64,000 bases of DNA from Patescibacteria group bacterium (GTDB taxonomy: Bacteria; Patescibacteriota; Patescibacteriia; JAXHNJ01): positions 309,287 to 373,286 of the forward strand of contig JBAZMP010000001.1 in the NCBI GenBank assembly GCA_041649715.1. The letters run 5' to 3'. Positions 1 to 63,444 of this stretch are shown one piece after another. Each line of letters opens with the position of its first letter. Within the stretch, counting starts at the first letter, position 1. The notes below the pieces were generated by a model. The model had not been told where the DNA came from. It worked only from the letters and a program-made list of their open reading frames with translations, and searched no databases. A program made the translations under genes and the position numbers.

Positions 1-35
1 CAGAGTTAAGCCGAATGTCTCTTGGAAACGAGTGA

Positions 36-76
36 TTTTTTGGCTTGAATAAAAGCAGGAAAAATGCTAAGGTAGG
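36..76 (+). promoter_or_regulatory. Conserved ~40-bp upstream element, copy 1 (TTGAAT-17 bp-TAAGGT promoter-like) in front of dinD
   Basis: The sequence TTTTTTGGCTTGAATAAAAGCAGGAAAAATGCTAAGGTA is repeated almost identically at 1086..1126 in front of the next operon. It reads as a -35 TTGAAT, a 17-bp spacer, a TGn motif and a -10 TAAGGT. Confidence 0.45.
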
Positions 77-118
77 GGAGTAACATATACGAATTTCGGT
101 GGCTGGGAGAAAAAATAT

Positions 119-973
119 ATGGAAAAACAGATCATTGTCCGGCTGCATAAAAATTTCGAGGATTGCGCCCGCGAAAAAGACGGCGTGGAATTTTGGTATG
201 CCCGCGAATTGCAGGAATTGCTCAACTATGACAAGTGGGGCAATTTTGAGAATGTCATAAATAAGGCGAAAATAGCCTGCCGGAACGCGAAACAAGAGGT
301 CGCCGACCATTTTGCCGACGTCGGGAAAATGGTTGATTTGGGTTCCGGAAGCCAGCGTGAAGTGCCTGATATTATGCTGACGCGTTATGCCTGCTACCTG
401 ATCGCCCAGAATGGCGATCCGCGAAAAGACGAGATTGCTTTCGCTATGACCTATTTCGCGGTGCAGACGCACAAGCAGGAAATAGTCGAGCAGCGCCTGG
501 TCCAGTGGGAACGGGTGCGCGACCGGGGAAAGCTTTCTACTTCTGAAAAATCTCTTTCCGGCGTGCTTTTTGAGCGCGGAGTGGACAGCCAGGGGTTTGC
601 CCGGATCAGGAGCAAAGGTGATGCCGAGCTTTTTGGCGGATTAACAACTCAGGATATGAAGCAGAAATTAGGCGTGCCGAACAGCCGACCGCTGGCTGAT
701 TTTTTGCCCAGCGTAACCATTAAGGCCAAGGATTTGGCGAATGAAATAACTAGCCATAATATCCGGAAAGATACGGATTTGCGGGGGGAAGTTCCCATTA
801 CTTCAGAGCACGTGAAAAGCAACCGCAATATGCGCCAGATGCTCGGCAAGAGCGGCATTTACCCCGAAGACTTGCCGGCGGAGGAAGACGTGAAAAAGCT
901 TGAACGCAAGCTTAAGTCGGAAAATAAAAAATTGCCAAAGGCGGTTAAGAAGCTGAAAGATAGCAAAAAATAA
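119..973 (+). CDS. dinD: DNA-damage-inducible protein D (DinD)-like protein
   Basis: 284 aa. Strong collinear similarity to E. coli DinD as I recall it: ...GSGSQREVPDIMLTRYACYLIAQNGDPRKD... matches GSGAQRELEDVHLSRYACYLVVQNGDP. It also has FWYARELQELLNYDKWGNF and a basic C-terminus. Confidence 0.8.
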   Translation: MEKQIIVRLHKNFEDCAREKDGVEFWYARELQELLNYDKWGNFENVINKAKIACRNAKQEVADHFADVGKMVDLGSGSQREVPDIMLTRYACYLIAQNGDPRKDEIAFAMTYFAVQTHKQEIVEQRLVQWERVRDRGKLSTSEKSLSGVLFERGVDSQGFARIRSKGDAELFGGLTTQDMKQKLGVPNSRPLADFLPSVTIKAKDLANEITSHNIRKDTDLRGEVPITSEHVKSNRNMRQMLGKSGIYPEDLPAEEDVKKLERKLKSENKKLPKAVKKLKDSKK

Positions 974-1062
974 TCCCACGTTGAGACATTAGAAAAACAG
1001 CCCAAGCTCTAAAGTGCCGCTTAAAGATTGAATTTGTTAAATAGATAATAATAGGCTTTGTG

Positions 1063-1092
1063 GCGCCTCGCTGCGGCTCGGCGCCTTTTTTG
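1063..1092 (+). terminator. Intrinsic terminator after dinD
   Basis: GGCGCC-tcgctgcggctc-GGCGCC hairpin followed by TTTTTT. Confidence 0.5.
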
Positions 1093-1126
1093 GCTTGAAT
1101 AAAAGTAAGAAAAATGCTAAGGTAAA
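1086..1126 (+). promoter_or_regulatory. Conserved ~40-bp upstream element, copy 2 (TTGAAT-17 bp-TAAGGT) in front of the restriction-modification operon
   Basis: TTTTTTGGCTTGAATAAAAGTAAGAAAAATGCTAAGGTA matches copy 1 at 38 of 41 positions. Confidence 0.45.
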
Positions 1127-1213
1127 GGCATAAAATAACACAAATTTTGGTGGAAAATAGATTATAATACGGAGGTAAATTAAAAGAATTTTTGGGCAAT
1201 TAAATAAAAATAT

Positions 1214-3586
1214 ATGAATAGAAATGTAGTTGAAGAATATTTAAAAAAACAGAAAATAAAAGTCGTTGAGGAATTTGATTTTGAAAAAAAGAAAGTAAAA
1301 TATTCCGAAAAGATAAGAGGTTGGAAGATTGATAAATTTAGGGGCGATGAGGAAATCGTTAGAGCTTTTGTTCTTGCTAAACTTGTAAACGAATTGGGAT
1401 ATAAACCTGAGAATATTGAATTGGAAAAAGAATATGATATTGGTAGACCAAAGGTAAATAAACCCAGAATTGATATTATAGTTAAAGACGATAAAGACAA
1501 CGTTTTTTTGTATATTGAATTAAAAAGCCCCGCAGATTATGAAAAAGATAAGGATGAAGTAATTGAGAAACAACTTTTTAATCTTGCTTCACAAGAACAG
1601 GGCCAAGGTAAAAAAGTAAAATATCTCGTATTATATACAATTGAAATTGTTGAAACCCAGATAAAAGACAAATGTATTTTGATTGACTATGAAAAATTTA
1701 ATTCATTCAACACGTGGAAAGAAGTACGAAATTACGCAGATGAATTACCCGAAAGATATGAAAAAGCTCAAAAAGAACCATACGTAAAAGGTGGAAAAAA
1801 AGATTTAGAGACAAACTTTTCATATGAACAGCTTGATGGGCTGAGAAAAAATCTACATAATGTACTTTGGGGAGGTGGTGGAACAGATGACAACGATATT
1901 TTTTCGTCATTAGTAAATATTATTTTGGCAAAAATTCAAGATGAAAGCGAAAAAGAGGAAGGCGGAGAATATGACTTCCAAATTCGTTCATTTAAAGATG
2001 GCGAAAGTTTTGAAACCAACCAGCAACTTTTTATAAAAATAAATGATCTTTATATAAGAGCGTTAAAACAAAGATTAAATATTATTGACGAAAATGAGTT
2101 AAAAGAAAGCTTTGTAATTGATAAAAAGAAATTTTCTCTTGCAAAATTAAAATACACTATAATGCAAATCGAGAGATATTCATTTGTGGACGGGAAAAAC
2201 AGCTTTGACGGTAAAGATATTCTAGGAGACTTTTTCGAGGGTATTATTAGAGAAGGATTTAAACAAACAAAAGGTCAATTTTTTACGCATGTTAATATTG
2301 TAAGGTTTTTGCTTTGGGGGTTGCAACTTGATAAGCTAGCAATTGATAAAGTGAATAAAGATTTAGAAATTCCCTACCTAATAGATCCAAGCGCCGGTAG
2401 CGGCACTTTCCTGATTGAATATATGAAGTTTATTACCGAAAATCTCAAGAGAAGATTTAAAAGTAGACTAGCAAAAAAAAGAGACGTAGAGGACAAATTT
2501 AATCAATGGTTTATCCCTGACCACCGAGAAAATAAATGGGCACAACATTATATTTATGGCATAGAAACTAATTTTAATCTAGGTACTGCTACTAAAGTAA
2601 ATATGATTTTGCATGGGGATGGCTCAACTAATGTTTTTGTTAAAGACGGACTATTACCTTTTAATTATTACGACAAAGAAACCGCGCCGAACTATTTGAA
2701 GCAAAGCGAACAAGACAAAAACTACTTTAATAAAGAAGTAAATAAGCAATTTGACGTGATTATAACTAATCCTCCATTTAGTGTCACTTTGGATAATGAA
2801 ACAAAAGAGCATCTTACTAAAGAGTTTATTTTTGGAAGCACAAAAAACTCGGAAAATTTGTTTGTAGAAAGATGGTATCAATTATTAAAACCTAACGGAA
2901 GATTTGGGGTAGTTTTGCCAGAAAGTGTTTTTGATACAACAGAAAATAAATACATTCGTCTATTTATTTACAAATATTTTAAAATTAAAGCAGTAGTTTC
3001 TTTACCACAACTTACTTTTCAGCCGTTTACAAGTACTAAGACTAGTCTTTTATTCGCTCAAAAGAAAACTGATAAGGAAATTGAAGAATGGAATAAACTT
3101 TGGAGTAAATATAGTAGTGAATGGAGTGCTCTAAAAAATAAGTGTAAAAATTTATTATTGGTCTATTTAGAAAACAAAGACAAAAAGAAATTATCTTCAA
3201 TCAAAGATTTGTTAGAATCGGAGAAAAAAGAGATATTATTAAGAATGCTTAAAGATAATATTGAAGAAGATGATAAAAAATTATTAGCAAAAGAGCTGAT
3301 ATATAAATACAAAAGTGAATTAGTTGAACTTTGTGAATATGATAACGATACTAAAGATGTTTTTGGTTTTGTCAATACCTGGTGGGTTTTTAGTGAGGTA
3401 GCAAAAATACTCAATTACAAAATTTTTATGGCAGAAGTAGAAAATATTGGATATAAAAGGACTAAAAGAGCTGAAAAACCTATGCCAAACGAACTTTATC
3501 GCGTAAATGATAAAGGAGAAGTTTTAGTTGATGATGGCAGGATAGAAACTGCTTTAGATTATTTAAGAAAAGTGATATGGGATTAA
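1214..3586 (+). CDS. Restriction-modification bifunctional subunit: N-terminal HSDR_N-type PD-(D/E)xK nuclease domain fused to a gamma-class N6-adenine DNA methyltransferase (BcgI-A-like Type IIB, or a Type I M-like subunit)
   Basis: 790 aa. The N-terminal region has PRIDIIVKDDKDNVFLYIELKSP, a D..ExK nuclease motif. Methyltransferase motif I is LIDPSAGSGTFLIEY and motif IV is ITNPPFSV. The gene overlaps the downstream S gene by 10 nt and is extremely AT-rich. Confidence 0.75.
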   Translation: MNRNVVEEYLKKQKIKVVEEFDFEKKKVKYSEKIRGWKIDKFRGDEEIVRAFVLAKLVNELGYKPENIELEKEYDIGRPKVNKPRIDIIVKDDKDNVFLYIELKSPADYEKDKDEVIEKQLFNLASQEQGQGKKVKYLVLYTIEIVETQIKDKCILIDYEKFNSFNTWKEVRNYADELPERYEKAQKEPYVKGGKKDLETNFSYEQLDGLRKNLHNVLWGGGGTDDNDIFSSLVNIILAKIQDESEKEEGGEYDFQIRSFKDGESFETNQQLFIKINDLYIRALKQRLNIIDENELKESFVIDKKKFSLAKLKYTIMQIERYSFVDGKNSFDGKDILGDFFEGIIREGFKQTKGQFFTHVNIVRFLLWGLQLDKLAIDKVNKDLEIPYLIDPSAGSGTFLIEYMKFITENLKRRFKSRLAKKRDVEDKFNQWFIPDHRENKWAQHYIYGIETNFNLGTATKVNMILHGDGSTNVFVKDGLLPFNYYDKETAPNYLKQSEQDKNYFNKEVNKQFDVIITNPPFSVTLDNETKEHLTKEFIFGSTKNSENLFVERWYQLLKPNGRFGVVLPESVFDTTENKYIRLFIYKYFKIKAVVSLPQLTFQPFTSTKTSLLFAQKKTDKEIEEWNKLWSKYSSEWSALKNKCKNLLLVYLENKDKKKLSSIKDLLESEKKEILLRMLKDNIEEDDKKLLAKELIYKYKSELVELCEYDNDTKDVFGFVNTWWVFSEVAKILNYKIFMAEVENIGYKRTKRAEKPMPNELYRVNDKGEVLVDDGRIETALDYLRKVIWD

Positions 3587-4989
3587 ATAAATTTACAGTT
3601 GATTTTCAAAATATTGGTGAACAACAATTTTTAAGACCCAATTTTGGTTACAGGTATTTTTTTGATATTCAGAATGCGGAAATTTATCCTACAAAAGATA
3701 GTATTAAATTAAAATATGTCTTGAATGAGATGCCGATGAAGAAAGTAAGCAAGGGTGAATTAGAAGAGTCAGAAATTCTGATTGATATAGGAAATATTGA
3801 AAGAAGATTTAATAATTTAATAAATTTAGTAGAAGTAGATAGAATAGGTTCTGATAAAAATATAATGCAATATGGAGACATCATTATACCTAAATTGCAA
3901 CCACAAATGGGGAATATTTTTTTAAATTCTGGTCATAAAAGATTTATAGGATCTACCGAATTGCTTGAATATAAAATTAATGAAAATTATAATCCCATAT
4001 TCATTTATTACTTAATTACTTCTAATAAATTTCTTTTTGATCTAGCAAAATTGGAAAGTGGAAAAGCGCATAGAAGGGTAAATTCAGTAGATCTGTTAAA
4101 AATTAGAATTCCCTTAATATCTAAAGAATCGCAAGATTTAATTGTTGCTCAAATATGGCCGATTGAAAAGAAAATTAATGAACTAAAAAAACAAATTGAA
4201 CAACCTCAAAATGTTATTAATAAAGTTTTTGCAAGAGAATTTGGTTTTGATTTAGAAAAATATGAAAAGTTAAAGAAAGATAAGTTTTCCGAAGTAGATT
4301 TAAAAGATATTTTGAGACATAATTTTGTTAGAATAAGTTTTCATTTTCATCATAAAACTCTTATTGCCATTGAAAATAAATTAAAAAATAAGAATTATTG
4401 GGCGCCGGTTAATTCATTATTTAGTTTATTCGGTGGAAAAAGAATACCAAAGGGTAAGAGTTTTTCGAATATCGAAACGGACTATTATTATTTAAGACCT
4501 ACGGAAGTAAGTATTTGGGGTATTGATAAGATTAACGTTCCATTTATCCCTGTATCAATTTATGATCAGTTAAAGAGATATAAAATAGTAACGGATGAAT
4601 TTTGTATTTCAATTGTCGGTACTTTAGGGAAAACCGCGTTAATTAACACAGATATTTTAGATATAGGAAAAGATAATTTAATATTAAGTGAAAACTTTAT
4701 TAAACTAAAACCTAAAAAACATATAAATAGTTTATTTTATATTTACTTTTTTTATAGTTTTATTTTTGAAGCGCAAATTAATAGAGAATATACCATAACA
4801 TCAATAAAAAAATTAGGTATTGATAAATGGAATAATATAAAAATTCCATGTATTTCTATTATAAAACAGCAAAAAATTGTTGATGAAATCAAGGGTGAAT
4901 TAGACAAACAAGAAAAATTTTATAAGAAAATTGAAATGGAAAGAGATAAAATTGATGAGATTATTGAAAAAGTGATTATTCGTGAATAG
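3577..4989 (+). CDS. hsdS: Restriction-modification specificity subunit (HsdS / BcgI-B-like, two target-recognition domains)
   Basis: 470 aa. Two variable domains are separated by the conserved central coiled-coil spacer (LISKESQDLIVAQIWPIEKKINELKKQIEQ). The C-terminus has a matching repeat (IKQQKIVDEIKGELDKQEKFYKKIE). It is translationally coupled to the methyltransferase gene. Confidence 0.8.
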   Translation: MGLNKFTVDFQNIGEQQFLRPNFGYRYFFDIQNAEIYPTKDSIKLKYVLNEMPMKKVSKGELEESEILIDIGNIERRFNNLINLVEVDRIGSDKNIMQYGDIIIPKLQPQMGNIFLNSGHKRFIGSTELLEYKINENYNPIFIYYLITSNKFLFDLAKLESGKAHRRVNSVDLLKIRIPLISKESQDLIVAQIWPIEKKINELKKQIEQPQNVINKVFAREFGFDLEKYEKLKKDKFSEVDLKDILRHNFVRISFHFHHKTLIAIENKLKNKNYWAPVNSLFSLFGGKRIPKGKSFSNIETDYYYLRPTEVSIWGIDKINVPFIPVSIYDQLKRYKIVTDEFCISIVGTLGKTALINTDILDIGKDNLILSENFIKLKPKKHINSLFYIYFFYSFIFEAQINREYTITSIKKLGIDKWNNIKIPCISIIKQQKIVDEIKGELDKQEKFYKKIEMERDKIDEIIEKVIIRE

Positions 4990-5064
4990 ACTCATATTTA
5001 AGTCATTTTTACAATATCCATTGACCTAATTTATTTCAATTAATAATTATTAATTAAGAATATT

Positions 5065-5985
5065 ATGGCAAATCTCTATTGGAAAAAGAATAAAAAAATA
5101 TTAGCCGCTACCGAGACACCATTTAAAACAGAAGATGAACTTGAACGTTATCTATTAGATACCCGGGGGATTTTAAGCGAAATCAATATAATAAATAGGC
5201 AAATTAGGTCCAAAACGGTTTCAGGAATAGAAATTCCAGATATGATCGGAGTTGATAGCGAGGGTTCCATTGTTATTATTGAAAATAAAAATGTTCCGGT
5301 TGATGAAAGGATTATTTCTCAGGTACTTAATTATGCTCTTTGGGCAGAATCTAATCCAGATTCAATAAAGAATTTATGGCTTCAAGCTGATCAAGAAGGC
5401 GTGGAACCAGAATGGGACAATTTACAAATTCGCATAATGATAGTTGCCCCAGAAATAAAACCACATTTAGCAAAATTCATTTCAAAAATTGGATACCCAA
5501 TTGATTTATTAGAGATAAAAAAATTTAATATTAGTAAAGATGAATTTATTGTGTTAAATAAAATAGAACCAAATATAATTGATACAAAACCAGTACATGC
5601 AAAAAGAAATTATGATTATTCATATTATTCAACCAATCATAATAAGGAAAGTGTAAAAAAACTTGAAAAAGCTGTAAATAGCGTTGAAAATTATGTTAAT
5701 AAAAACAAATGGAAATTAGAAAAAAAATTTAACCAAGGTTATGTGGGCTTTAAATATGGTTTTCCCTTAGTTTTTGGCATACAGTGGTTAGGAACCAGAT
5801 CCTTCGGGTTTTTTTTCAAAATGCCTAAAGCAAAAATGAAAAAAATTATTGTTCCGGGCCTTGAATTTAAGGGTTATAATGATCGGTGGGATCAAGTAGA
5901 ATATAAAATTATTTCACCTACTTTTGACGTTAAAAAATTAAAACCAGTGTTTCTAGCTTCATACAATTATGTCAAAGGAGAATAA
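5065..5985 (+). CDS. PD-(D/E)xK nuclease-like protein of unknown function (restriction-endonuclease-like fold, possible NucS/DUF91-like core)
   Basis: 306 aa. IPDMIGVDSEGSIVIIENKN followed by QVLNYALWAE reads as D...ExK plus a QxxxY motif. The gene is AT-rich and sits inside the defense island. Confidence 0.45.
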   Translation: MANLYWKKNKKILAATETPFKTEDELERYLLDTRGILSEINIINRQIRSKTVSGIEIPDMIGVDSEGSIVIIENKNVPVDERIISQVLNYALWAESNPDSIKNLWLQADQEGVEPEWDNLQIRIMIVAPEIKPHLAKFISKIGYPIDLLEIKKFNISKDEFIVLNKIEPNIIDTKPVHAKRNYDYSYYSTNHNKESVKKLEKAVNSVENYVNKNKWKLEKKFNQGYVGFKYGFPLVFGIQWLGTRSFGFFFKMPKAKMKKIIVPGLEFKGYNDRWDQVEYKIISPTFDVKKLKPVFLASYNYVKGE

Positions 5986-6031
5986 CATTTTTTCTTTAAA
6001 AGTTGCGCTATAATATAATAAGATATGCAGC

Positions 6032-6598
6032 ATGAGTAATCTTGAAACATTTTTCGAACAATTCGAAGAATGGGTGCTAAAAGATATTAAAATAGTACTA
6101 GAATTAGTAAATAAAGAAGGTAATTCATTAGCCCCTGATAGAAGAGTGGTGGTTTGGCGGCGCCCGCTTGTCGCCGGAGTTATATTAATATGTTGCGCTA
6201 TCGATACATTAGCCGCATTTCGTTATGGCCGAACTAATAATAATGTGGGAACATATTTTATGCGCTTTGTTAGAGATTATTTTGCGCAAAGCCGTGACAC
6301 TAGATATAATGATGAGCAAATCTATAAGGGGTTACGTAATGCATTATTACACGGCTATTCTCTTGGATCAGATTTAGCATTAAGTCATACTAGCGCTTCA
6401 CGGCATTTGACGAAAGAAGCAAACAAAATAGTTATAGATGTATTTTCACTGCAGCAAGATTTAGAAAAAGTATATTCTATCTATAAAAGTGAATTGAAAA
6501 ATGGACAACATATTCCAGAATTTAATGATAGATGGAATTACGCACCTCTTATTCAATATTTTCCTGATATAGATTTAAAACTTAATAGCAGAAATTAA
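6032..6598 (+). CDS. Hypothetical protein (defense-island associated)
   Basis: 188-aa ORF with no recognisable motif. It follows the nuclease-like gene 46 nt downstream and is followed by a strong terminator. Confidence 0.5.
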   Translation: MSNLETFFEQFEEWVLKDIKIVLELVNKEGNSLAPDRRVVVWRRPLVAGVILICCAIDTLAAFRYGRTNNNVGTYFMRFVRDYFAQSRDTRYNDEQIYKGLRNALLHGYSLGSDLALSHTSASRHLTKEANKIVIDVFSLQQDLEKVYSIYKSELKNGQHIPEFNDRWNYAPLIQYFPDIDLKLNSRN

Positions 6599-6652
6599 AG
6601 TAATTCAAACATAAGCTCATTTTTCCCTCCCCACTGGCGGTTTTTGCCTAAC

Positions 6653-6687
6653 AAAAAAATCCTCAAAAAAGCTGACGAGGATTTTTG
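6653..6687 (+). terminator. Intrinsic terminator
   Basis: AAAAAATCCTC-aaaaaagctgac-GAGGATTTTTG hairpin. Confidence 0.6.
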
Positions 6688-6691
6688 ACTA

Positions 6692-6871
6692 TTAAATAGT
6701 CAAATCGTGAATAGGTACACTAGCTGCCCAACGTTTTATCCATTGAACAGAATCTATAGCATTTTGTTTTGAGGAATAACCCTCACTCCAAGCAACGAAT
6801 TCGTTGTTTGCAGCAACAAGACGCCATCGGTACTCATTTGCGTTATCACGATAGATTTCGAATCTAATCAT
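6692..6871 (-). CDS. YegP/UPF0339 (DUF1508) family small protein, absent from the ORF track because it is under 60 aa
   Basis: Reverse-strand translation gives MIRFEIYRDNANEYRWRLVAANNEFVAWSEGYSSKQNAIDSVQWIKRWAASVPIHDLTI (59 aa), the classic DUF1508 pattern FEIYkDkageyRfRLkA.NGEiia.SegY.sk. Confidence 0.7.
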   Translation of the reverse strand: MIRFEIYRDNANEYRWRLVAANNEFVAWSEGYSSKQNAIDSVQWIKRWAASVPIHDLTI

Positions 6872-7293
6872 GATTTTTTTCCTTTGTTAGACTATACTTA
6901 GGAGTCGACCTTTAATTTACTCCCAGGACAAAAACCAAATAATTTAGTTCCTATCAGGGGAGAATTAAAAGCGACTTAATCTAGATATAGAATAAGCGCC
7001 GGATTTTACCTCGCCAGCTTTTTCAAAGAGTTTTTAACAGCTACATACTAACGAATAATAATGTCTCTGTCAAGTAGGTTTATTATTTTAGCTAAAAAGC
7101 TTATAATAAATCCATGTCCAAATACTACAACTCTAAGCGCACCAAACATCTTTTTGACCCTACCTTTTTTAACGCTATTTGTTATAAGCACTAAATCCGA
7201 AATACGAAACTCTAAACAAATTCTAATTTCTCAAATCCGAAATTCGAAACTGAGGGTTTTAAAAGCCAAAGACGATAACGAAAAACAAGCGGT

Positions 7294-7405
7294 AGAGGGG
7301 GTCCGGGGGAAAAACTGAAAGCCAAACGGCCATACGGAACAACCTTACCCACCTCTCGCGGTTTTTTTCCCCCGGAACTTTTGCTACTTTTAGTTATAAA
7401 AGTAG
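7294..7405. repeat. Structured repeat family A, copy 1 (GGGGTCCGGGGG ... CCCCCGGAAC long hairpin plus a small 3' hairpin)
   Basis: GGGGGTCCGGGGGAAAAACTG...CGGTTTTTTTCCCCCGGAAC, then CTACTTTTAGTTATAAAAGTAG. Related copies lie at 10409..10530, 12596..12755 and 12866..12955. Confidence 0.7.
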
Positions 7406-7409
7406 AAAT

Positions 7410-7525
7410 ATATCAGTACAGACAAAAAAGTAAGTAGGGGATAATCAAAAAAGACTGTCTACCCTTCGAGGCTCAAGCCTGTCCTGAGTGGCATCGAAGG
7501 ACACCTCAGAGTGACAGTTTTATTT
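7410..7525. repeat. Structured repeat family B, copy 1 (AGTAGGGGATAA..CTGTCTACCCTTCGAGGCT-[variable]-CACCTCAGAGTGACAGTTTTA)
   Basis: The conserved 5' and 3' arms can pair (CTGTCTACCC with GGGTGACAG) around a variable core. Copies lie at 10141..10215, 10560..10640, 10700..10795 and 12757..12790. Confidence 0.65.
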
Positions 7526-7695
7526 TGATTCTTTTTCACCAAAAAAACAAACAATCAACCAAGACATTTTTTATCCGCCCGCTAGCCTTAGCGTGTTTTT
7601 TGTATGAAGAAGTTTATCCACCTTGACTTAGAAAGGTATATATATTAGTGTTAAGTTAGTACTAATTCAGTAAATTAGCACAATCTACTAATTTT

Positions 7696-8283
7696 ATGAA
7701 ATGGCTAGATTTTGAGCGAAAAATTAAGAGTAAAAATATTAAGCTGTTCACGCCGCTTGATGTGCAGAGATTTTTAGGCCGGTCTAAAATAGCCGCCCGT
7801 TTTTTGATCCATCGCCTGAAAAAAAATGGCTATATTGTGAGCCTCAAACGCGGTTTGTATAAGCTGTCCGATGAACAAATTCCGGATCTGTATCTGGCCA
7901 ATAATATTTACGCCCCCTCGTATGTTTCCCTGGAATTCGCCCTTTCGTACCACGGAGTCATTCCCGAAACTGTCTATGAGATAACTTCGGTTACCACCAA
8001 GGCCACCCGCCGGTTTGAGGCGCTGGGAAAAGTTTTTTCTTACCACAAAATAAAAAAACCGGCTTTTACCGGCTATGTCATCCAAAAACAGGGCGGGTTG
8101 GGTTTTCACGTCGCCGAACCAGAAAAGGCTTTCGTGGATGCGAATTATTTTCGGCTCTTGGACGGCCGAAAACCGCTGTCCCGCTTCAACAAGGATAAAA
8201 TTGATTTAAAAAAGGCCTTGTTTTATGCCGCTCTTTTCGGCAATCAGAAACTTAACAATATAATTAAAACAACGCTTCAATGA
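7696..8283 (+). CDS. abiEi: Type IV toxin-antitoxin system antitoxin AbiEi (winged-HTH transcriptional regulator)
   Basis: 195 aa. The N-terminus MKWLDFERKIKSK...FTPLDVQRFLGRSKIAARFLIHRLKKNGYIVSLKRGLYKL is typical of AbiEi. The gene overlaps the downstream gene by 4 nt (ATGA). Confidence 0.75.
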   Translation: MKWLDFERKIKSKNIKLFTPLDVQRFLGRSKIAARFLIHRLKKNGYIVSLKRGLYKLSDEQIPDLYLANNIYAPSYVSLEFALSYHGVIPETVYEITSVTTKATRRFEALGKVFSYHKIKKPAFTGYVIQKQGGLGFHVAEPEKAFVDANYFRLLDGRKPLSRFNKDKIDLKKALFYAALFGNQKLNNIIKTTLQ

Positions 8284-9023
8284 TTTCCCAGGAATTAATA
8301 AAAAAAATAGCCAGTCAGAATAAAACAGCGGATTTTCCCAATATTGTCCGCGAGTATTTTCAGCACCTTTTTTTATCCGAGCTCTATAGATTATCCGGCG
8401 CCGAGAATTTGCTTTTTAAGGGCGGGACCGCTTTGCGCATTATCTACGGCAGTCCGCGCTTTTCCGAGGATTTGGATTTTACCCTGATCGGCGTTGAAGG
8501 TTACCGGAAAAAGGAATTCGCGGAAAGCCTGTTTCTCAGCGTTTTGACCGAGATTGAAAAAATCGGCATTAAGGTGGAGATAAACCGGAAGTCGGATGAG
8601 ACCCGCGAGGGTTATTTTGGCGATGCGAACTATCAGGTTTATGATTATCCCGAAACGTCCGTGAGTATAAATATATCCTCAAGAGAGGGAAAAGATATTA
8701 AGGGCGAGATTGATTCCATCGCCAATGATTTCATACCGACTTATAATATTCTGCATCTGTCAAAAAATGTGTTGGTGGAAGAAAAAATAACGGCCGCGAT
8801 CACTCGGGCGAAACCCAGAGATTTTTACGATGTCTATTTTATCCTTAGAAAAAATTTGCTGGCGACAGAAAATAAAAAAATACTCCCTGACATCCTTGAT
8901 AAATTGAATAACACTGATATTAATTTTACCCAGGAATTAGGCATTTTCTTGCCGAAGGATCAGCAGCAAATAGTGAAAGATTTCAAGAATATTTTAACTT
9001 CTGAAATAAAGCGTTATATTTAG
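8280..9023 (+). CDS. abiEii: Type IV toxin-antitoxin system toxin AbiEii (DUF1814 nucleotidyltransferase)
   Basis: 247 aa. It has the nucleotidyltransferase motif LFKGGTALRIIYGSPRFSEDLDFTL (GS...DxD), and its size and operon partner are typical. Confidence 0.75.
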   Translation: MISQELIKKIASQNKTADFPNIVREYFQHLFLSELYRLSGAENLLFKGGTALRIIYGSPRFSEDLDFTLIGVEGYRKKEFAESLFLSVLTEIEKIGIKVEINRKSDETREGYFGDANYQVYDYPETSVSINISSREGKDIKGEIDSIANDFIPTYNILHLSKNVLVEEKITAAITRAKPRDFYDVYFILRKNLLATENKKILPDILDKLNNTDINFTQELGIFLPKDQQQIVKDFKNILTSEIKRYI

Positions 9024-9036
9024 CCTTAACATATTT

Positions 9037-10059
9037 ATGGAAACCAAAAATCCAATGAAAACCAAAAAGTGGCTCTGGTACGCCGCAGCGGCTCTTTTAT
9101 GTTTTATCGCCATCGCCGCTTTTGCCTGGAGCGCGGCCAATAAGAGCAAGAATACGAACGCGGTGGCCGTGGCCAATAAAAACGTAAATTCGGCTGCTAA
9201 TTCCAACGCCGCAGCTGGTCAGAACGCCAATAGCAGTCTGGCCAATACCAATACGAACACCAATAATAATACTAATGCCAGCGCCAATACCAACGCTAGC
9301 CAGATCGTGACCGCGGCCAAGACCATTGATGAAACAGCCATTACGCTGGTGCAAAAAAGTACCGGCCACTGCGAAGCCTTGGCTCCTTTGGACTGGTCTT
9401 TTGTCACCAATGCCGAAGGGAGCGGCGCGGATCTTTATTCCGCCGATAAATCCTTGAAAGCCGCCATGCACGCCGGCTGGGGGATCTCGGCCGTCTATAC
9501 CTACATGTATCCGACCGTGGATTCTTTTCTTTCCGCCTGGCTCGGTTATGCTTATACCGGTTCATTTACCAACGGAGGCATTACCTTGGCCGCCGCCCAG
9601 GATGTTTATGAAGGTTTTATCCAGCGGGAATTTACCACCTCAAACGGCCGCAAAGGGGTGGCGATATACAAGACCTACAATTTCGGCGACCCGACCATGT
9701 ACGTGGTTTCCGTTTATATCGCCGATACGGCCAGCGACAAGTGGGAGACCAGCGGCGCTCAGCCATTTTACGTCGCCCTGACCATCCGCTGCGTCACCCA
9801 GCTCCGGCCGGTAACTTCCAGCGTTGATCCTTACACTTCTGATCCGGGCAGTTCTTCTGACAATCCCGAAGTGGGCCTGTCTGACAAATGGACCGAAGCC
9901 ATTATGGGTTATGAAAATGTCTATTCCCCGACCACGGGGGAGCATTACGAAGCGCCCCTTACTTCCGAGTGGCAGGGCGGTCCGCAAGGAACCGGTTATT
10001 ACCGCAGCCTTCCCAATGGCGGTTATGAAAAACTTGAACCGGGGTTTGGAGAGTACTAG
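9037..10059 (+). CDS. Membrane-anchored extracytoplasmic protein of unknown function with an Asn-rich linker
   Basis: 340 aa. A basic N-terminus and one TM helix (WLWYAAAALLCFIAIAAFAW) are followed by an NTN/NAN low-complexity linker and a globular domain. GC content is markedly higher than in the neighbouring genes. Confidence 0.6.
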   Translation: METKNPMKTKKWLWYAAAALLCFIAIAAFAWSAANKSKNTNAVAVANKNVNSAANSNAAAGQNANSSLANTNTNTNNNTNASANTNASQIVTAAKTIDETAITLVQKSTGHCEALAPLDWSFVTNAEGSGADLYSADKSLKAAMHAGWGISAVYTYMYPTVDSFLSAWLGYAYTGSFTNGGITLAAAQDVYEGFIQREFTTSNGRKGVAIYKTYNFGDPTMYVVSVYIADTASDKWETSGAQPFYVALTIRCVTQLRPVTSSVDPYTSDPGSSSDNPEVGLSDKWTEAIMGYENVYSPTTGEHYEAPLTSEWQGGPQGTGYYRSLPNGGYEKLEPGFGEY

Positions 10060-10830
10060 GCAGATAATATTATTGTCATACTGAGGAGCCATGAGATCCT
10101 GAGTCGCATCGAAGGACGAATGGCGTCTCGAAGTATGACCGTTTAGACACATAAAAGCCTGTCTATCCTTCGAGGCTCGCATTGCTCGCACCTCAGGGTG
10201 ACAGTTTTAGTTTTATTTGAAATTCGGTGCATCGGATTTAATCGTCAGGCGGCGAAGCGTTGACGAGCCGCCACTAAGAAAAAGTTAGCAGTAATTTAAG
10301 CTTTCAGCAGGCTGGGGTCTCTGCCTACGGCAGACAGGTGGGGGCTTCATCGCCTTAAATATTTTACAGCGTTTTTTGCTATTAAAAATAACGAAAATTT
10401 AATGGGCGAGGGGGTCCGGGGGAAAAACTGAAAGCGAATGGGCTACGCGGTAAAACCAACCCCCTGTGCTCGCGGTTTTTTTCCCCCGGGGCTTTTGGTT
10501 CTTTTGGCCTCAAAAGAACAAGACAATCAGCCTTGCCCCCTAAAATAAAAATTTTCTAAAGGTAAAAACTCACCCTTCGAGGCTCCCATTCGACGCGGCT
10601 CATGCTCGCACCTCAGGGTGACAGTTTTATTATTTTGGTTTTTGGAGTCTGCCCTGAGTGGCAACGAAGGGGTTACAAAAGTTGAAATACTTCGGCACAG
10701 ACTAAAGATTGAGTAAGGGATAAACAGAAGAAACCGTCTACCCTTCGAGGCTTAGGCGTTGCCTTCGCACCTCAGGGTGACAATTTTAGTTTGCATTTAT
10801 CAACTTTATAAGATTAAAATAAAAGACCCT
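10060..10830. repeat. Non-coding island densely packed with structured repeat modules (families A and B, a TTAGCAG..GCTTTCAGCA module and an AGCCTTGCCCCC..AAAATAAAA module)
   Basis: Family A copy at 10409..10530. Family B arms at 10158..10215, 10571..10640 and 10735..10795. A CTGCCCTGAGTGGCAACGAAGGGGTTACAAAAGTTGAAA module at 10644..10690. No credible ORF. Confidence 0.7.
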
Positions 10831-11637: not shown

Positions 11638-12531
11638 ATGCAAAAAAAATCCTGGCTTAGCCTCATTTATTTTCTGGTTTTTGGCTTATTAATAATTTTT
11701 ACTTTCTTATTCAAAAGCCGTTCTCTGCTGTATGTAGTAATTCCCATTTTTTTTGGTTTTATCGTGGTTTTGAGTTTGATAAATGTTGGAGGCAAGATGT
11801 TTTCTTTTTCCAAAGGTTTGATGACCATGAGTAAAACCGGGCCGGTTTTTACCTCTAAGGTCTGGTCTTGGCGGGAAGGGGAAACGATTGATTTCGCCGA
11901 TATTTTTCCGGGGTTGAAGGACGTGACCTCATTTTTCAGTGAAATGCCACTGCCGAAAATAAAACCGGAGAGAGTGGCGATTGGAGAAAAAGAGGGGGTG
12001 AATTATAATATTTACCGGCTTAATTTCACGAATATCGTAAAAGTTCCGGCCAGCCGCAAACCGGGCTTCCGGCCGCTGATAATCCACGGGGTTAAAGCGC
12101 CGGGAATGAGCGGGGGCTTGAATTCAAGTGTGAGCCAGAGCTTTAATATTTTGCAGGCCAGATTGACTTTTCCTGGATCTTTCCCCGGCCGTTTGATTAT
12201 CCAAAGAGTTGCCGGGCCGACCTTGGGCCGTGATATTGATCTGGAAAGCGTGGAATTTAACAAAAAAGTTCAGGTCTATACCAATCAGGCCAAAATCGCT
12301 TACCAGATTTTATCCCCGGATTTTATGGACTGGTATTTGAAACTGCCTGATCAGCCGGTTATCGCTTTTGACCAACAGATATGTTATTACACCCTGATCG
12401 GATTCAGTAATAAGGGTGAGGAAGAGATTACCGCCGATATTGAACAATTGATTGACCGCGTCCTGCATTCAGGGGCTTTAACCTTATCCCAAATCCCAAA
12501 TCCTAAATCCAAAACAAATCCCAATATCTAA
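11638..12531 (+). CDS. Hypothetical membrane protein (two N-terminal TM helices plus a globular domain)
   Basis: 297 aa. TM helices are LSLIYFLVFGLLIIFTFLF and VVIPIFFGFIVVLSLINV. The last roughly 12 codons (PNPKSKTNPNI) are encoded by an AAATCC-type repeat. Confidence 0.55.
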   Translation: MQKKSWLSLIYFLVFGLLIIFTFLFKSRSLLYVVIPIFFGFIVVLSLINVGGKMFSFSKGLMTMSKTGPVFTSKVWSWREGETIDFADIFPGLKDVTSFFSEMPLPKIKPERVAIGEKEGVNYNIYRLNFTNIVKVPASRKPGFRPLIIHGVKAPGMSGGLNSSVSQSFNILQARLTFPGSFPGRLIIQRVAGPTLGRDIDLESVEFNKKVQVYTNQAKIAYQILSPDFMDWYLKLPDQPVIAFDQQICYYTLIGFSNKGEEEITADIEQLIDRVLHSGALTLSQIPNPKSKTNPNI

Positions 12532-13175
12532 ATCTGAAATTCGAAACACGGCGGCGTCGTCTCATTTTATGGTGAACAAAAGTAATCAGAAAGCGTGGGG
12601 GCTCCGGGGGTTTTCCTCAGTCCGCAGGGGTTTTAGCGTCTATTTACGCAAATCTTGAACGAATTAAAACCCCCGGGGCTCTTTGGTACTTTCTGGCCCC
12701 AGAAAGTACAAGCAAACAGCCTTGCCCCCAAAAATAAAATTTTCAAAAAAGTAAAACTAACCCTTCGACGCGGCTCAGGGTGACAAGAGGAGAAAGGCGG
12801 CGAAACCAGGGGCGAGCCGCCTAGTGAATAAAAATTAGCAGATACTTTATGCTTTCAGCAAAACAGGGGTCCGGGGGGAATGCTCGACTTTGCGGCTTTT
12901 AGCATTTATATGAGTTTTAAGGGGGCAATCATTCCCCCCGGAACTTTTGCTACTGGAGCCTGCCCTGAGTGGCACCGAAGGGGTTACAAAAGTTGAAAGA
13001 TAGCATCTAAAAAAACAGCTAAAGTAAAACAAAATAATAAACCAAAAAATTACTCTCGCCCGTCTTACGCATAGGTCGATCTTTTTGGCTAATTTAAGCA
13101 GAAATAACAAAAAGACGTTAATTTTGACTAAATCGGCTAAAATCGCTATAATAAAGTTAAATACAGGAGGGGAAA
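12532..13175. repeat. Non-coding island of structured repeat modules (family A copies 3 and 4, a family B fragment, and others)
   Basis: GGGGGCTCCGGGGGTTTTCC...AAAACCCCCGGGGCTC at 12596..12680. GGGGTCCGGGGGGAATG...CATTCCCCCCGGAAC at 12866..12955. CTGCCCTGAGTGGCACCGAAGGGGTTACAAAAGTTGAAA at 12958..13000. Confidence 0.7.
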
Positions 13176-14499: not shown

Positions 14500-14672
14500 T
14501 TTAAATCCTAAATTCTAAATCCGAAAATCTAAACAAATCTTAAATTCTAAATTCCAAATTCAAAACCGGTTTGGAACATTGGAAAATTAGGGCTTCGAAT
14601 TTGTTTCGGATTTAGGATTTCGCGCTTCGAATTTATCTGAATTTTGGTGCTTGTAATTTGGAATTTTGAAGA
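14500..14672. repeat. Long AT-rich palindromic hairpin of the AAATYC/GAATTT family (probable bidirectional terminator)
   Basis: AAATCCTAAATTCTAAATCCGAAAATCT...TTTCGGATTTAGGATTT. The two arms are near-perfect reverse complements across more than 60 nt. Confidence 0.65.
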
Positions 14673-20067: not shown

Positions 20068-20195
20068 ATAAATTTCAAATTACAAATCTCAAGTTCCAAA
20101 TAAATTCCAATGACCAAAATTTCAAACTTTTTAAACTATCTGGTGTTTTGGTCATTTGATCATTGAAAGTTGGTGCTTGGAATTTGGAATTTGTT
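20068..20195. repeat. Long palindromic hairpin of the AAATYC family after aspS
   Basis: ATTCCAATGACCAAAATTTCAAAC...GTGTTTTGGTCATTTGA...TTGGAATTTGGAATTT. The arms are reverse complements. Confidence 0.6.
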
Positions 20196-20280
20196 TGACT
20201 AATATTTACAAAATAGTCGTGAACATCTCAAAATTACAGAAATATATTCTTATCACGGCCTACCTAAACCGCGGCAAAAA

Positions 20281-20542
20281 AATGAGCCGAAAAGGGTTTG
20301 AGAAATTTTATTATTCATATAAAAACAAGCCGAAAAGAGAGGATATTCAGAATATCATTACCAAGTCTTCGGAGCGCCTGATAGACAAGGAAATGCTCGT
20401 CGGCTACGGCCGGAGGACGCCCCACAAATGGTTTATCGACGAGATAAGCCTGACCGCCAAAGGCAAAAGAACAGCCAAGAAAATGTTAGGGGAACAGCAG
20501 CAGCTTCCTTTTAAAATTAACACAAAGGGAAAAAAGAAATGA
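20281..20542 (+). CDS. Hypothetical small basic protein; start uncertain (the track ORF starts at 20156 inside the hairpin)
   Basis: MSRKGFEKFYY... (87 aa). It overlaps the next gene by 4 nt (ATGA). The upstream in-frame ATG at 20156 lies within the palindrome and is less likely. Confidence 0.4.
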
Positions 20543-34248: not shown

Positions 34249-34701
34249 ATGCCGGAGAAAGAAAGAGATTTCTTAGTCCGTAAGCCGATTAGAGTGAGTA
34301 TCATTATGAATGTTGATGTAAGTGATTGGGCCCTTAAAGACAAGCTGCCCGAAGGCTATATATGCGGTGGTGGCGTATTTAGTTTTCCCGCCGGGTATCG
34401 GGAATCCTACATTGTCAATGGAAAAGAATATAATTGTGAGGGTAATTTGAGCTTAGAGGAGCAAAGGGCTGATATTACACATGACCTGACGGAAGGAGGC
34501 TTTTCTCTTCAGGAAGCGGAAGAGTATATGGTCAATCTTAAGACCGTAGAATGGTCAGTCAGCTATTTGAATTACGATGCTTCGCAAAAGTGGCTGGAAC
34601 TACATCCGGAATTTGAAGATGAAGCCATGAAAATCTTAAAAGAAGCTATCAATGAGCTTAAAGCGGAAGGAAATGAACAAGGGAGACGGGTCAGAAGGTG
34701 A
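34249..34701 (+). CDS. Hypothetical acidic protein
   Basis: 150-aa ORF with no motif recognised. It is flanked by an imperfect direct repeat of about 26 bp. Confidence 0.45.
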   Translation: MPEKERDFLVRKPIRVSIIMNVDVSDWALKDKLPEGYICGGGVFSFPAGYRESYIVNGKEYNCEGNLSLEEQRADITHDLTEGGFSLQEAEEYMVNLKTVEWSVSYLNYDASQKWLELHPEFEDEAMKILKEAINELKAEGNEQGRRVRR

Positions 34702-34724
34702 TGCTTGTGATTTATCCGAACGAT

Positions 34725-34862
34725 TGAAATAAATTCCAATATCCAAATTCAAAACACGCCCCAGAGGCGTTTTTTTGTATTAAAAAAATGGATCGTTAGA
34801 GTTTTGGATTTCGAATTTGGAATTTGGGTATTGTTTGGAACTTGGAATTTGTGATTTGGTAT
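34725..34862. repeat. AAATYC-family palindromic hairpin with a nested canonical terminator (ACGCCCCAGAGGCGTTTTTTT)
   Basis: ATTCCAATATCCAAATTCAAAAC ... GTTTTGGATTTCGAATTTGGAATTTGG. The inner GC hairpin plus T-tract lies at 34752..34776. Confidence 0.6.
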
Positions 34863-35002
34863 TTAGCGGCTAAATAGCGGCACAGTCAAGAATAGGGGAT
34901 AACCTTCCCTTTAAAATTTGACTCTCAAAAAGGGCGATGATATAATGTGGATAAGTATGTAATTGCATACTTTTCATACTTAATAAAATCAAGCAAAAAA
35001 CC

Positions 35003-35356
35003 ATGAAAAAAATCGCTTTAATCGCCACAATGGCTATCGCTTGCGTCTTGCCTCTTGCCGTTTTGGCCCAAACGCCGCTTTCTATTGAGAATGTCGGCAG
35101 TACCCTGGGTCTTGGCACGGCTGATCTCAAGGCCAGCGTTTTAAACATCCTCCAGTGGGTCCTGGGTCTGCTTGGCTTAATCGCGGTGATTATGATCATT
35201 ATCGGCGGCATAACACTGCTGGTGCCGACGAGCGCCGAAGCGGGAGAGAAAGCGAAAAAGATAATTACGGGGGCGGTCATCGGTTTGGTCGTTATCTTGC
35301 TCGCCTGGGCCATTATTATCTTTGTCATCAACACGACCACTAACGTGACGGTTTAA
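35003..35356 (+). CDS. Small secreted 2-TM protein: a candidate TrbC/VirB2-like pilin, or a hydrophobic bacteriocin-like peptide
   Basis: 117 aa. Signal peptide MKKIALIATMAIACVLPLAVLAQT, then two long hydrophobic helices separated by the basic loop PTSAEAGEKAKKIITG. The overlapping minus-strand ORF was rejected. Confidence 0.45.
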   Translation: MKKIALIATMAIACVLPLAVLAQTPLSIENVGSTLGLGTADLKASVLNILQWVLGLLGLIAVIMIIIGGITLLVPTSAEAGEKAKKIITGAVIGLVVILLAWAIIIFVINTTTNVTV

Positions 35357-37671: not shown

Positions 37672-37845
37672 CAAACTAAATTCTAAATCCGAAATCCTAA
37701 ATTCTAAACAAATCATAATATCTAAATCACAAATTCGAAACCCCATTAGAAATTCTATTTTTAAATAGGAAACCGGTTTGGGACATTGGAAAATTATTGC
37801 TTCGAATTTGTTTAGGATTTAGAAATTGAGATTTGGAATTTTATC
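37672..37845. repeat. AAATYC-family long palindromic hairpin
   Basis: AAATTCTAAATCCGAAATCCTAAATTCTAAACAAATC ... GATTTGTTTAGGATTTAGAAATT. The arms are complementary. Confidence 0.65.
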
Positions 37846-41092: not shown

Positions 41093-41119
41093 TTAGCACT
41101 CTTGACCCGAGAGTGCTAA
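41093..41119 (+). promoter_or_regulatory. CIRCE operator (HrcA binding site), overlapping a TTGACC-18 bp-TATAAT promoter
   Basis: TTAGCACTC-ttgacccga-GAGTGCTAA is a perfect 9-N9-9 inverted repeat. The -10 TATAAT sits at 41126..41131, only 8 nt before the hrcA ATG, so the mRNA is possibly leaderless. Confidence 0.9.
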
Positions 41120-42372: not shown

Positions 42373-42434
42373 ATCGAGATTCGAGATTGGTGATTCGTGA
42401 TTCGTATCCGAATCCCGGATCTCGAATCACGAAC
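42373..42434. repeat. Palindromic hairpin of the GATTCG/CGAATC family
   Basis: CGAGATTCGAGATTGGTGATTCGTGATTCG ... CGAATCACGAAC. Confidence 0.55.
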
Positions 42435-43342: not shown

Positions 43343-43435
43343 CGTGATTCGAAACTCGAGACTCGTGATTCAACCGAATCCCAAATCACGAATTACCAAT
43401 CACAAATCAATCACCAATCTTGAATCCCGAAATCA
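43343..43435. repeat. Hairpin-rich low-complexity repeat (CGAATC/AAATCA units)
   Basis: CGTGATTCGAAACTCGAGACTCGTGATTCAACCGAATCCCAAATCACGAATTACCAATCACAAATCAATCACC. Confidence 0.5.
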
Positions 43436-63264: not shown

Positions 63265-63444
63265 CTTGACGAATTTTTGAGGCTATGTTATTATTCTTTG
63301 GCGACTAAAAATAAAAAAAACAAACTATAAACAAACAATATAAACAAAACCTAAAATTAAAAATAAAACAATTTGTAACGAAAACACAAAAATACAAATC
63401 AGTAAAAAACAAAAGACTAAAAAATAAAATAAAGGAAAATAAAA

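Follow-up and report, generated by a model that had tools for sequence, protein, structure and literature searches.

Palindromic elements built from AAATYCN heptanucleotide repeats in the stop-to-start gaps of a Patescibacteria genome

The intergenic gaps of a 64 kb stretch of DNA from a Patescibacteria group bacterium (NCBI GenBank assembly GCA_041649715.1, contig JBAZMP010000001.1, positions 309,287 to 373,286; the whole stretch is termed the window and all coordinates are positions within it) contain a palindromic sequence composed of the heptanucleotide AAATYCN. Discrete copies occupy the gaps between stop codons and ribosome-binding sites, and related genomes differ by the gain or loss of whole copies. 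The reading that we favour, to which we give about an even chance of being correct, is a dispersed self-folding palindromic insertion element of heptanucleotide repeats that is co-transcribed with its neighbours as an intercistronic hairpin. We infer a role at the RNA level (processing, stability, or partial or leaky termination), of which a role in RNA stability is plausible. The conserved 2 x 32 nt architecture and its reach over phyla, phages and ribosomal RNA (rRNA) appear to be undescribed; the kind of sequence is known, from heptamer simple sequence repeats (SSRs) and from palindromes resembling miniature inverted-repeat transposable elements (MITEs) or repetitive extragenic palindromes (REPs).

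Architecture and inventory of the copies

Alignment of ten arms in their A/C-rich sense gave a layout of about 64 nt, 2 x [(AAATYCN)x4 + AAAC], that is, two 32 nt halves, the second of which consists of four AAATYCN-like units followed by AAAC. Periods of 7 and 32 were reported independently in the arms by Tandem Repeats Finder (TRF). The unit logo has 2.0, 2.0, 1.5, 1.3, 1.0, 1.1 and 0.15 bits for A, A, A, T, Y, C and N, respectively: the leading AA is invariant, the following A, the T and the C are strong, position 5 is a pyrimidine and position 7 is free. Adjacent units vary at positions 5 and 7 and nowhere else, and the variant units AAGCACN and AATGTCC/AATATCN recur. An inverted pair of arms around a variable centre forms an element of 130–180 nt.

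A profile of the arm, run in nhmmer, placed 11 copies at six sites, with E values between 3e-13 and 3e-6, and none elsewhere in the 64 kb. These form four inverted pairs (14503/14666, 20070/20192, 34716/34864 and 37678/37841) and two solo arms (7186–7251 and 12486–12547). The string AAATYCNAAATYCNAAATYCNAAA, which is three consecutive AAATYCN units plus AAA, occurs six times, compared with 0.00 expected from shuffles. TRF assigned period 7 at 12486, 14502, 20070, 20177, 34803, 37676, 42374 and 43377, all of them intergenic, so that the tandem 7 nt units in intergenic DNA that define heptanucleotide SSRs and the short tandemly repeated repetitive (STRR) sequences of cyanobacteria are present. 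The short, non-coding, multicopy form with terminal inverted repeats that defines MITEs is present as well; the pairs and solo arms lie within 38 kb and contain no open reading frame (ORF). The features are as follows.

7186–7251, + strand: solo left-type arm in the A/C-rich sense, full length (nhmmer 44.8 bits, E = 6.5e-13); 72–82% identical to the other left arms
12486–12547, + strand: solo left-type arm (nhmmer 45.1 bits); supplies the tail and stop codon of ORF 11638–12531 and is absent in L122 (L numbers are labels of comparison loci and contigs)
14503–14568, + strand: left arm of element e14500, 23 nt past the asnS stop codon (nhmmer 40.0 bits; TRF periods 7 and 32)
14568–14672, − strand: right half of e14500, about 1.5 inverted arm copies including a GGTGCTT variant unit (nhmmer 14666–14603, 45.9 bits, and 14621–14568, 27.6 bits), ending 28 nt ahead of the ATG at 14700
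20070–20125, + strand: left arm of e20068, 31 nt past the aspS stop codon (nhmmer 36.0 bits)
20141–20192, − strand: right arm of e20068, including GGTGCTTGGAATTTGGAATTT and the called gene start at 20156 (nhmmer 26.1 bits)
34716–34762, + strand: left arm of e34725, 3' two-thirds only, 15 nt past the stop codon of ORF 34249–34701 (nhmmer 23.3 bits)
34756–34777, no strand assigned: canonical bidirectional intrinsic terminator at the centre of e34725 (detected on both strands by a terminator scan)
34801–34864, − strand: right arm of e34725 (nhmmer 40.0 bits)
37678–37742, + strand: left arm of e37672, 8 nt past the stop codon of the ABC-2 permease gene (nhmmer 44.7 bits)
37775–37841, − strand: right arm of e37672 (nhmmer 37.0 bits; 36 nt inverted repeat with 83% complementarity)
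42373–42434, + strand: hairpin of a second word, (TCGNGAT)n / (ATCNCGA)n (24 nt inverted repeat, 83%; TRF period 7)
43343–43435, + strand: heptamer array of the second word, GATTCGN and then AATCACN, in the gap that separates an unnamed ORF from dnaK (TRF period 7)

An earlier note on this sequence had described near-perfect palindromes in these gaps, built from AAATCC, AAATTC, CGAATC and TTTGGA words. AAATYC/GRATTT-rich or GATTCG-rich intergenic sequence was indeed found at all eight sites that it listed. The complementarity of the arms is only 75–85% (inverted-repeat finder), however, and the sites near 7195 and 12490, taken for fragments of palindromes, are complete solo left arms; a partner arm was searched for downstream of 7186–7251 and none was found. 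Six sites have AAATYCN arms; those at 42373 and 43343 use the second heptamer word GATTCGN. The arms have a polarity: left arms are 72–83% identical to one another, but each matches the reverse complement of its own right-hand partner at only 61–70%. A non-palindromic stretch, CCGGTTTGGRACATTGGAAAATTA..GCTTCGAATTTGTTT, is common to the right halves of e14500 and e37672.

Called genes make up 87% of the window, and all of the element sites fall in the remaining 13%. Genes in the first 46 kb are nearly all on the + strand; those on either side of the window elements are co-directional, as are, for the most part, those at 20 elements compared. The elements stand directly 3' of coding regions, as had been claimed, with left ends 1–31 nt past the stop codons of asnS, aspS, an unnamed ORF, the ABC-2 permease gene, grpE and another ORF; asnS, aspS, grpE and the ABC-2 permease gene were confirmed as flanking genes using Pfam. 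Two gene calls run into arms. The last ~15 codons (12486–12531) and the stop codon of ORF 11638–12531 are supplied by the solo arm, and a 128-residue gene (20156–20542) is called from a TTG start inside the right arm of e20068.

Gain and loss at orthologous sites

Presence/absence polymorphism at orthologous sites, as in MITEs, was found in three independent comparisons. The asnS gene of L122 is 83% identical in nucleotides to that of the window; homology between the two ends at 12483, the solo arm and the ORF tail that it encodes are absent in L122, where the counterpart protein ends in ...GALAKE*, and the gap holds a different repeat. At the junction of the scaffold and major capsid genes, phage L205 is filled and phage L242 (85% capsid identity) is empty, with stop and start codons 2 nt apart; L235, L244 and L234 are also without an element at this junction. 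The boundaries between filled and empty sites are sharp in the L122 and phage comparisons. Thirdly, L080 carries a palindrome that is missing from the orthologous 5' regions of L247 and L248, which have other heptamer arrays instead, so that heptamer words turn over at a fixed intergenic site. The arrays of these Gemmataceae-like relatives at this site (1440–1480 in both L247 and L248) are of the ATCACTG and CTGACCN types.

No such comparison could be made at e14500, because the gene downstream is an orphan (an orthologue search matched only itself) and because the only other assembly of the organism, the Logan contig L246, which was assembled independently, is 100% identical over the element and its flanks. 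This identity shows that e14500 is not an assembly artefact.

Occurrence in relatives, other phyla, phages and an rRNA gene

Relatives were collected by scanning JGI metagenomes for AsnS, which gave 80 loci (572 kb) at 57–65% identity plus one at 91%. The arm profile matched one of the 80 loci (L136). Many of the relatives carry period-7 arrays of other words, some as inverted pairs in stop-to-start gaps (for example L158 with CGTAACT/TTACGAG, L173 and L136). The design is therefore common in the group and the AAATYCN word is not. The earlier note had called the hairpins typical of the lineage, which is right for heptamer-array hairpins of other words; the word itself is in one of 80 relative loci, yet is found in other phyla and in phages.

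A scan of GTDB (one genome per species) with a three-unit pattern returned at least 120 loci. Labels of metagenome-assembled genomes (MAGs) among the matches listed include Acidobacteriota, Verrucomicrobiota, Cyanobacteria, Chloroflexota, Bacteroidota, Planctomycetota, several Patescibacteria groups and others. Plain arrays such as (AAATCCG)n or (AAATTCA)n, often adjoining other heptamer arrays, account for most of the loci listed. About a dozen of the matches listed are composite palindromes of the window type with AAACAAAT, AAGCAC(C/G) and AATGTCC/AATGACC, in sequences of 33–67% GC, and the composite architecture was seen in Planctomycetota, Nitrospirae, Saccharibacteria and tailed-phage contigs. 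As a check independent of the profile, AAACAAAT was counted within about 45 nt downstream of the pattern: it is there at nine of the 120 loci listed, compared with 0.3 expected. MAG labels are not always reliable: L080 carries the label Alcaligenaceae, but the GTPase encoded next to it has its best matches among named Gemmataceae proteins (65–66% identity); the locus is therefore Planctomycetota-like and certainly not from Patescibacteria. Arms from foreign genomes score 30–43 bits against the window profile, which is the range of the window's own arms.

Plain (AAATCCG)n and (AAATCCA)n arrays (L011, L012, L019, L020, L029, L083, L085 and others) often reach the start codon without a separate Shine–Dalgarno sequence; these start-abutting arrays come from Acidobacteriota, Verrucomicrobiota, Cyanobacteria and Bacteroidota. 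Their abutment on start codons fits the idea that the arrays serve as a platform for a protein with a footprint of about 7 nt per subunit, candidates being a cold-shock or S1-type OB-fold protein on a G/U- or A/C-rich RNA arm and a DNA-binding protein, with a regulatory effect on translation, antitermination or nucleoid structure. The periodic conservation, with AAAT-C fixed and positions 5 and 7 free, is the pattern expected of repeated recognition, the consensus is alike across phyla, and Bacillus subtilis CspB is mentioned, in a citation within PMC4679880, as binding one protein per heptamer. On the other hand, no candidate gene is linked, pairing of the arms in palindromic copies would mask single-strand sites and the simple arrays do not clearly favour one orientation towards start codons (by crude ORF calls, 52 are sense and 35 antisense). 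We regard a binding platform as improbable.

In viral sequences, AAATYCNAAACAAATYCNAAT matched 42 IMG/VR contigs, 21 of which also have matches to the arm profile; the signature GGTGCTTGNAATTTGGAATTT had no exact match in viral contigs. A BLAST search of e14500 against plasmid and phage collections gave no match, to which the low-complexity filter may contribute. Ten of the viral contigs are head modules of related tailed phages, with genes for a portal, a scaffold-like and a major head protein. The element of L205 and L224 lies between the stop codon of the scaffold gene and the Shine–Dalgarno sequence of the capsid gene, and in L228, L230 and L237 copies are present at this and other junctions. 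An all-versus-all comparison of ORFs in 35 element-bearing loci identified no recurrent linked protein family except the phage head genes among related phage contigs. Two further observations were made on these contigs. A mini-hairpin CUCC-(G/A)AA-GGAG that contains the downstream Shine–Dalgarno sequence directly follows the right arm (four sites each in L230 and L237; L205 2600–2620; L228 reverse complement 9290–9300). Comparison of the near-identical phage contigs L235 (6740–6900) and L244 (7990–8010) revealed an unrelated insertion of about 170 nt nested in the right arm of an L235 palindrome.

The Saccharibacteria locus L041 has a 173 nt element within its 16S rRNA gene, where it replaces five consensus positions at a hairpin tip (about 208–216 of SSU_rRNA_bacteria; cmscan). 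It is thus a self-complementary insertion at a helix tip, as rRNA intervening sequences are.

Folding and termination

Predicted + strand RNA folds of the four long elements have energies of −44.8 (e14500), −34.0 (e20068), −40.2 (e34725) and −39.0 kcal/mol (e37672), with z = −2.0 to −3.4 against our own shuffles (−3.2 for e20068; the z score of the folding tool itself for e14500 is −4.1). Folding energy had been proposed as a check in the earlier note, and the range of −34 to −45 kcal/mol bears it out for these four. Hairpins had been expected at every site. The element at 42373 is a good hairpin with 24 nt arms (−31.0 kcal/mol, z = −5.5), whereas that at 43343 consists mostly of a direct array and folds only weakly on the + strand (−13.3 kcal/mol; −30.7 kcal/mol on the − strand).

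The same positions had been interpreted as bidirectional terminators. In this account the elements are bidirectional Rho-independent terminators, or selected 3'-end RNA stabilizers, and the heptamer arms are extended A- and U-tracts around a hairpin. It accords with the location 1–31 nt past stop codons and with sense-strand folds that are at least as stable as the antisense folds in five of five window elements. Element e34725 has a textbook terminator at its centre, an ACGCC-CCAGA-GGCGT hairpin (34756–34770) followed by T7 with an A-tract upstream, and a strong σ70-like promoter afterwards (34918–34946; TTGACT-17-TATAAT with TG); GC hairpins between heptamer arms are also present in L173 and L122. 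This is, however, the one case of a GC stem plus U-tract among the eight sites (terminator scans), and the nested GC hairpin and T-tract that the earlier note ascribed to some of the elements exists in this element and in none other. No GC-rich stem of at least five pairs with a 3–8 nt loop and a U-tract was found in e14500, e20068, e37672, e42373 or e43343; a weak five-pair candidate follows the solo arm, at 12548–12560. The solo arms, moreover, are unable to form a hairpin, the right arm abuts the next Shine–Dalgarno sequence or ATG within gene clusters in several genomes and phages, one copy lies within a 16S rRNA gene, two elements are inside an operon (see below) and there is no strand asymmetry across the family. 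The elements are not classical intrinsic terminators, and a terminator reading holds for one copy only; as an account of the family we consider it distinctly unlikely.

Further candidates were tried and rejected. A search for a known RNA family gave no Rfam 15 match at the gathering score, nor at E ≤ 5 across 6–44 kb, and in the related loci Rfam matched only the 16S gene itself. Selection on the sense-strand RNA was not significant over 19 elements. Compensatory evolution in the window copies was discarded, as pairing with the own arm is no better than pairing across elements, and left arms resemble left arms more than they do their own partners. Elements of other genomes (L080, L090, L050, L063 and L109) pair much better with their own partner than across elements.

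Elements within the heat-shock operon

The sites at 42373 and 43343 are internal to an operon with the order hrcA–grpE–hsp20–orf–dnaK. A perfect CIRCE (controlling inverted repeat of chaperone expression; TTAGCACTC-N9-GAGTGCTAA), the only one in the window, is located at 41093–41119 and overlaps a TTGACC/TATAAT promoter upstream of hrcA. The 42373 element runs from 1 nt past the stop codon of grpE to 32 nt ahead of hsp20. Since the sole CIRCE and promoter are upstream of hrcA, efficient termination at 42373 or 43343 would cut off dnaK, and the operon position makes it unlikely that either is an efficient terminator. CIRCE was considered as an identity for these two elements and rejected, as neither matches TTAGCACTC-N9-GAGTGCTAA. 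The dnaJ gene lies about 7 kb beyond the operon, past several small ORFs.

The presence of the second word family beside hsp20 and dnaK would suit a hairpin that sequesters the downstream ribosome-binding site, either for translational coupling or as an RNA thermometer. So would L103, L136, L080 and the phage loci, in which the stop codon adjoins the left arm and the start codon adjoins either the last GGAUUU unit or a CUCC-GAA-GGAG mini-hairpin. In the window, in contrast, right arms finish 28–140 nt before the next start codons, the downstream genes have their own Shine–Dalgarno sequences outside the hairpin, and heat-shock control is already given by the perfect CIRCE. Sequestration is accordingly the reading to which we attach the least probability, and a very small one.

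Origin and possible function

If the copies are indeed insertions, the element would spread or be exchanged as a unit, in the manner of MITEs or REPs, with phages as a plausible vehicle. Its transcript would fold back on itself as a long AU-rich hairpin, and the insertion may be tolerated because it is thereby looped out of the mRNA or rRNA, which keeps neighbouring stop and start signals close. The window copies, which look old and decaying rather than tuned, would be read through within polycistronic transcripts. Possible effects are a 3'-end barrier to exonucleases, a processing site for double-strand RNases or a partial, non-canonical terminator.

Several results weigh against an insertion element of this kind. 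No clean target-site duplication was found, and the window copies have no direct repeat at their ends. In L205 and L228, AAGGAGRAA stands on either side of the element, 7–8 nt away from its left end; it coincides with the Shine–Dalgarno sequence and may be either a duplication or simply that sequence. MITEs depend on a parent autonomous insertion sequence (IS) with matching ends or on a transposase acting in trans, and the called genes of the window include no transposase, REP-associated tyrosine transposase (RAYT) or Y1 transposase. The arms do not cluster by genome (identity 0.685 between window arms and 0.699 between window and other arms), which is easier to reconcile with constraint to a universal consensus than with neutral decay after a recent burst. 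Sense-strand folds are not more stable across the family (12 of 19 elements, p = 0.29), and the duplex energies of own arms in the window are mid-field among cross-element pairings, with no element-specific co-adaptation of arms. From these last two results the window copies look degenerate and pairing appears to be a generic property of the vocabulary. Lastly, arrays of unrelated heptamer words stand at equivalent sites in relatives, so slippage in situ can also create such sequence.

A slippage origin would make the arrays local heptamer SSRs, rendered palindromic by template switching at pre-existing hairpins, immobile and functionless. Heptamer SSRs are over-represented and a polymerase-slippage hypothesis has been put forward for them (PMC4692102); simple (AAATCCG)n and (AAATTCA)n arrays are found in many phyla among the matches listed, relatives have other heptamer words, some as inverted pairs, and the window gave neither a target-site duplication nor a transposase. 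Slippage should, however, homogenize the units, and adjacent units here differ at positions 5 and 7. It also sits poorly with the sharp filled/empty boundaries and with the fixed-column AAACAAAT, AAGCAC and AATGTCC and the 2 x 32 nt layout that are shared over phages and genomes of 33–67% GC. We think slippage alone unlikely.

A bolder version of the insertion element is a new class of cross-phylum, phage-borne self-folding module that enters stop-to-start gaps and rRNA hairpin loops and whose 7 nt consensus is kept by a conserved host reader (such as an OB-fold protein of the cold-shock or S1 type) or by a mobilizing enzyme; it would be functional and spread horizontally, as opposed to being decayed simple repeats. 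We advance this tentatively, as possible but doubtful. Should the consensus be held by selection, it would point to a conserved reader of RNA or DNA with a 7 nt period, and the question 'why seven?' would become testable. Should the family be mobile, its host range would be exceptionally wide for a non-coding element, and metagenome assemblies would suffer broken contigs and gene calls extended in error because of it. Annotators should not label the elements terminators and should expect distorted ORF calls beside them, as in the tail 12486–12531 and the gene start at 20156.

Other repeats and neighbouring genes

A second, unrelated composite repeat is common to the gene-free gaps 7275–7530, 10388–10800 and 12590–13000 (76–94% identity). 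It consists of GGGGGTCCGGGGGAAAAA...TTTTTTTCCCCCGG, then GCCCTGAGTGGCA.CGAAGGGGTTACAAAAGTTGAAA and then a terminator-like CCCTTCGAGGC...CACCTCAGGGTGACAGTTTTA; two copies start just 3' of the solo heptamer arms, and a search of Rfam gave no match to the repeat. A repeat of about 170 nt, TTGTCATACTGAGGAG...CCTCAGGGTGACAGTTTTA, is present at 10072–10240 of the window and at 1389–1554 of L122, followed in each by a tail resembling a right arm (GGTGCATCGGATTT in the window and AGTGCTTCGGATTT in L122). In L122 it fills the gap upstream of asnS, where the window has the solo arm and other repeats. The gap before the last ORF (63304–63444) is occupied by A-rich low-complexity tandem repeats (periods 6, 13, 15 and 27) unrelated to the heptamer family.

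Positions 1–9100 form a low-GC island (27–29% GC at 2–6 kb, compared with about 46% elsewhere) with the appearance of an acquired defence island; its products include a Bro-N protein, an AbiEii toxin and a 790-residue Eco57I-like N6-methylase/restriction fusion, and two further ORFs are unassigned. A T4SS-pilin-domain protein (Pfam; typical of Patescibacteria) is encoded at 35003–35356, and an 859-residue coupling protein of the TrwB/VirD4 type is encoded about 25 kb away at 60118–62697.

Comparison with known systems

MITE-type and other palindromic intergenic repeats that are co-transcribed with genes include the Correia elements of Neisseria, enterobacterial ERIC/IRU, pneumococcal RUP and BOX, and cyanobacterial Nezha, and some of these repeats are substrates of RNase III or RNase E that alter mRNA stability. 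The window elements resemble them in length (100–200 nt), in being non-coding, multicopy and intergenic with AT-rich inverted arms, in presence/absence polymorphism and in forming mRNA hairpins. They differ in that no target-site duplication is defined, no parent IS is known and the arms are themselves internal heptamer arrays. To our knowledge, no MITE family extends beyond a genus or family, whereas the composite spans phyla and phages.

REP units are GC-rich sequences of 20–40 nt, lineage-specific and linked to RAYT, which classically protect upstream mRNA from 3' exonucleases. The elements are similar to REP, BIME and REPIN in being palindromic, extragenic and located past stop codons inside operons. 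They are not short GC-rich units: their arms are AT-rich and 64 nt long, and the window has neither a RAYT nor a Y1 transposase.

With bidirectional intrinsic terminators they have in common an A-rich arm, a hairpin and a U-rich arm, a position past stop codons and one true example in e34725. Most copies differ in having no GC-rich stem or stem-adjacent U-tract, in their AU-rich stems of 50–65 nt and in their occurrence in operons and an rRNA gene.

The intervening sequences of rRNA are hairpin insertions in rRNA helices that are removed by RNase III. The 173 nt self-complementary insertion of L041 at a 16S hairpin tip is alike, but members of the same sequence family are also found between protein-coding genes. 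The attC sites, CRISPR/TIGR arrays and telomere-like repeats were dropped as candidates, their defining end motifs, spacers or associated genes being absent.

Heptanucleotide SSRs and STRR sequences are also close to the window elements. Over-representation of heptamer SSRs between bacterial genes has been known since 2007, with no function established and no higher-order conserved unit described for heptanucleotide repeats in either source (PMC4692102; PMC4679880). Examples are the arrays of GGGAATC in Xanthomonas and GGGGAYT in Nostoc (PMC4692102) and of TAACTGA in Beggiatoaceae (PMC4679880). The Xanthomonas and Nostoc units read GATTCCC and AATCCCC on the other strand and so resemble the AAATCC and GATTCG words of the window. 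Both have intergenic 7 nt units that are degenerate ('heterogeneous') and turn over rapidly between relatives, and both include occasional inverted pairs that can form stem-loops. The window elements differ in their fixed arm of about 64 nt, non-periodic punctuation, higher-order period of 32 nt and usual inverted pairing, and their type of composite is common to several phyla and phages. Searches of the literature by topic and by sequence string found no description of the AAATYCN composite family. What sets this family apart is thus the organization of the AAATYCN word into a fixed arm of about 64 nt and a palindrome of 130–180 nt, with punctuation that recurs in Patescibacteria, Planctomycetota, Nitrospirae, tailed phages and a 16S rRNA gene.

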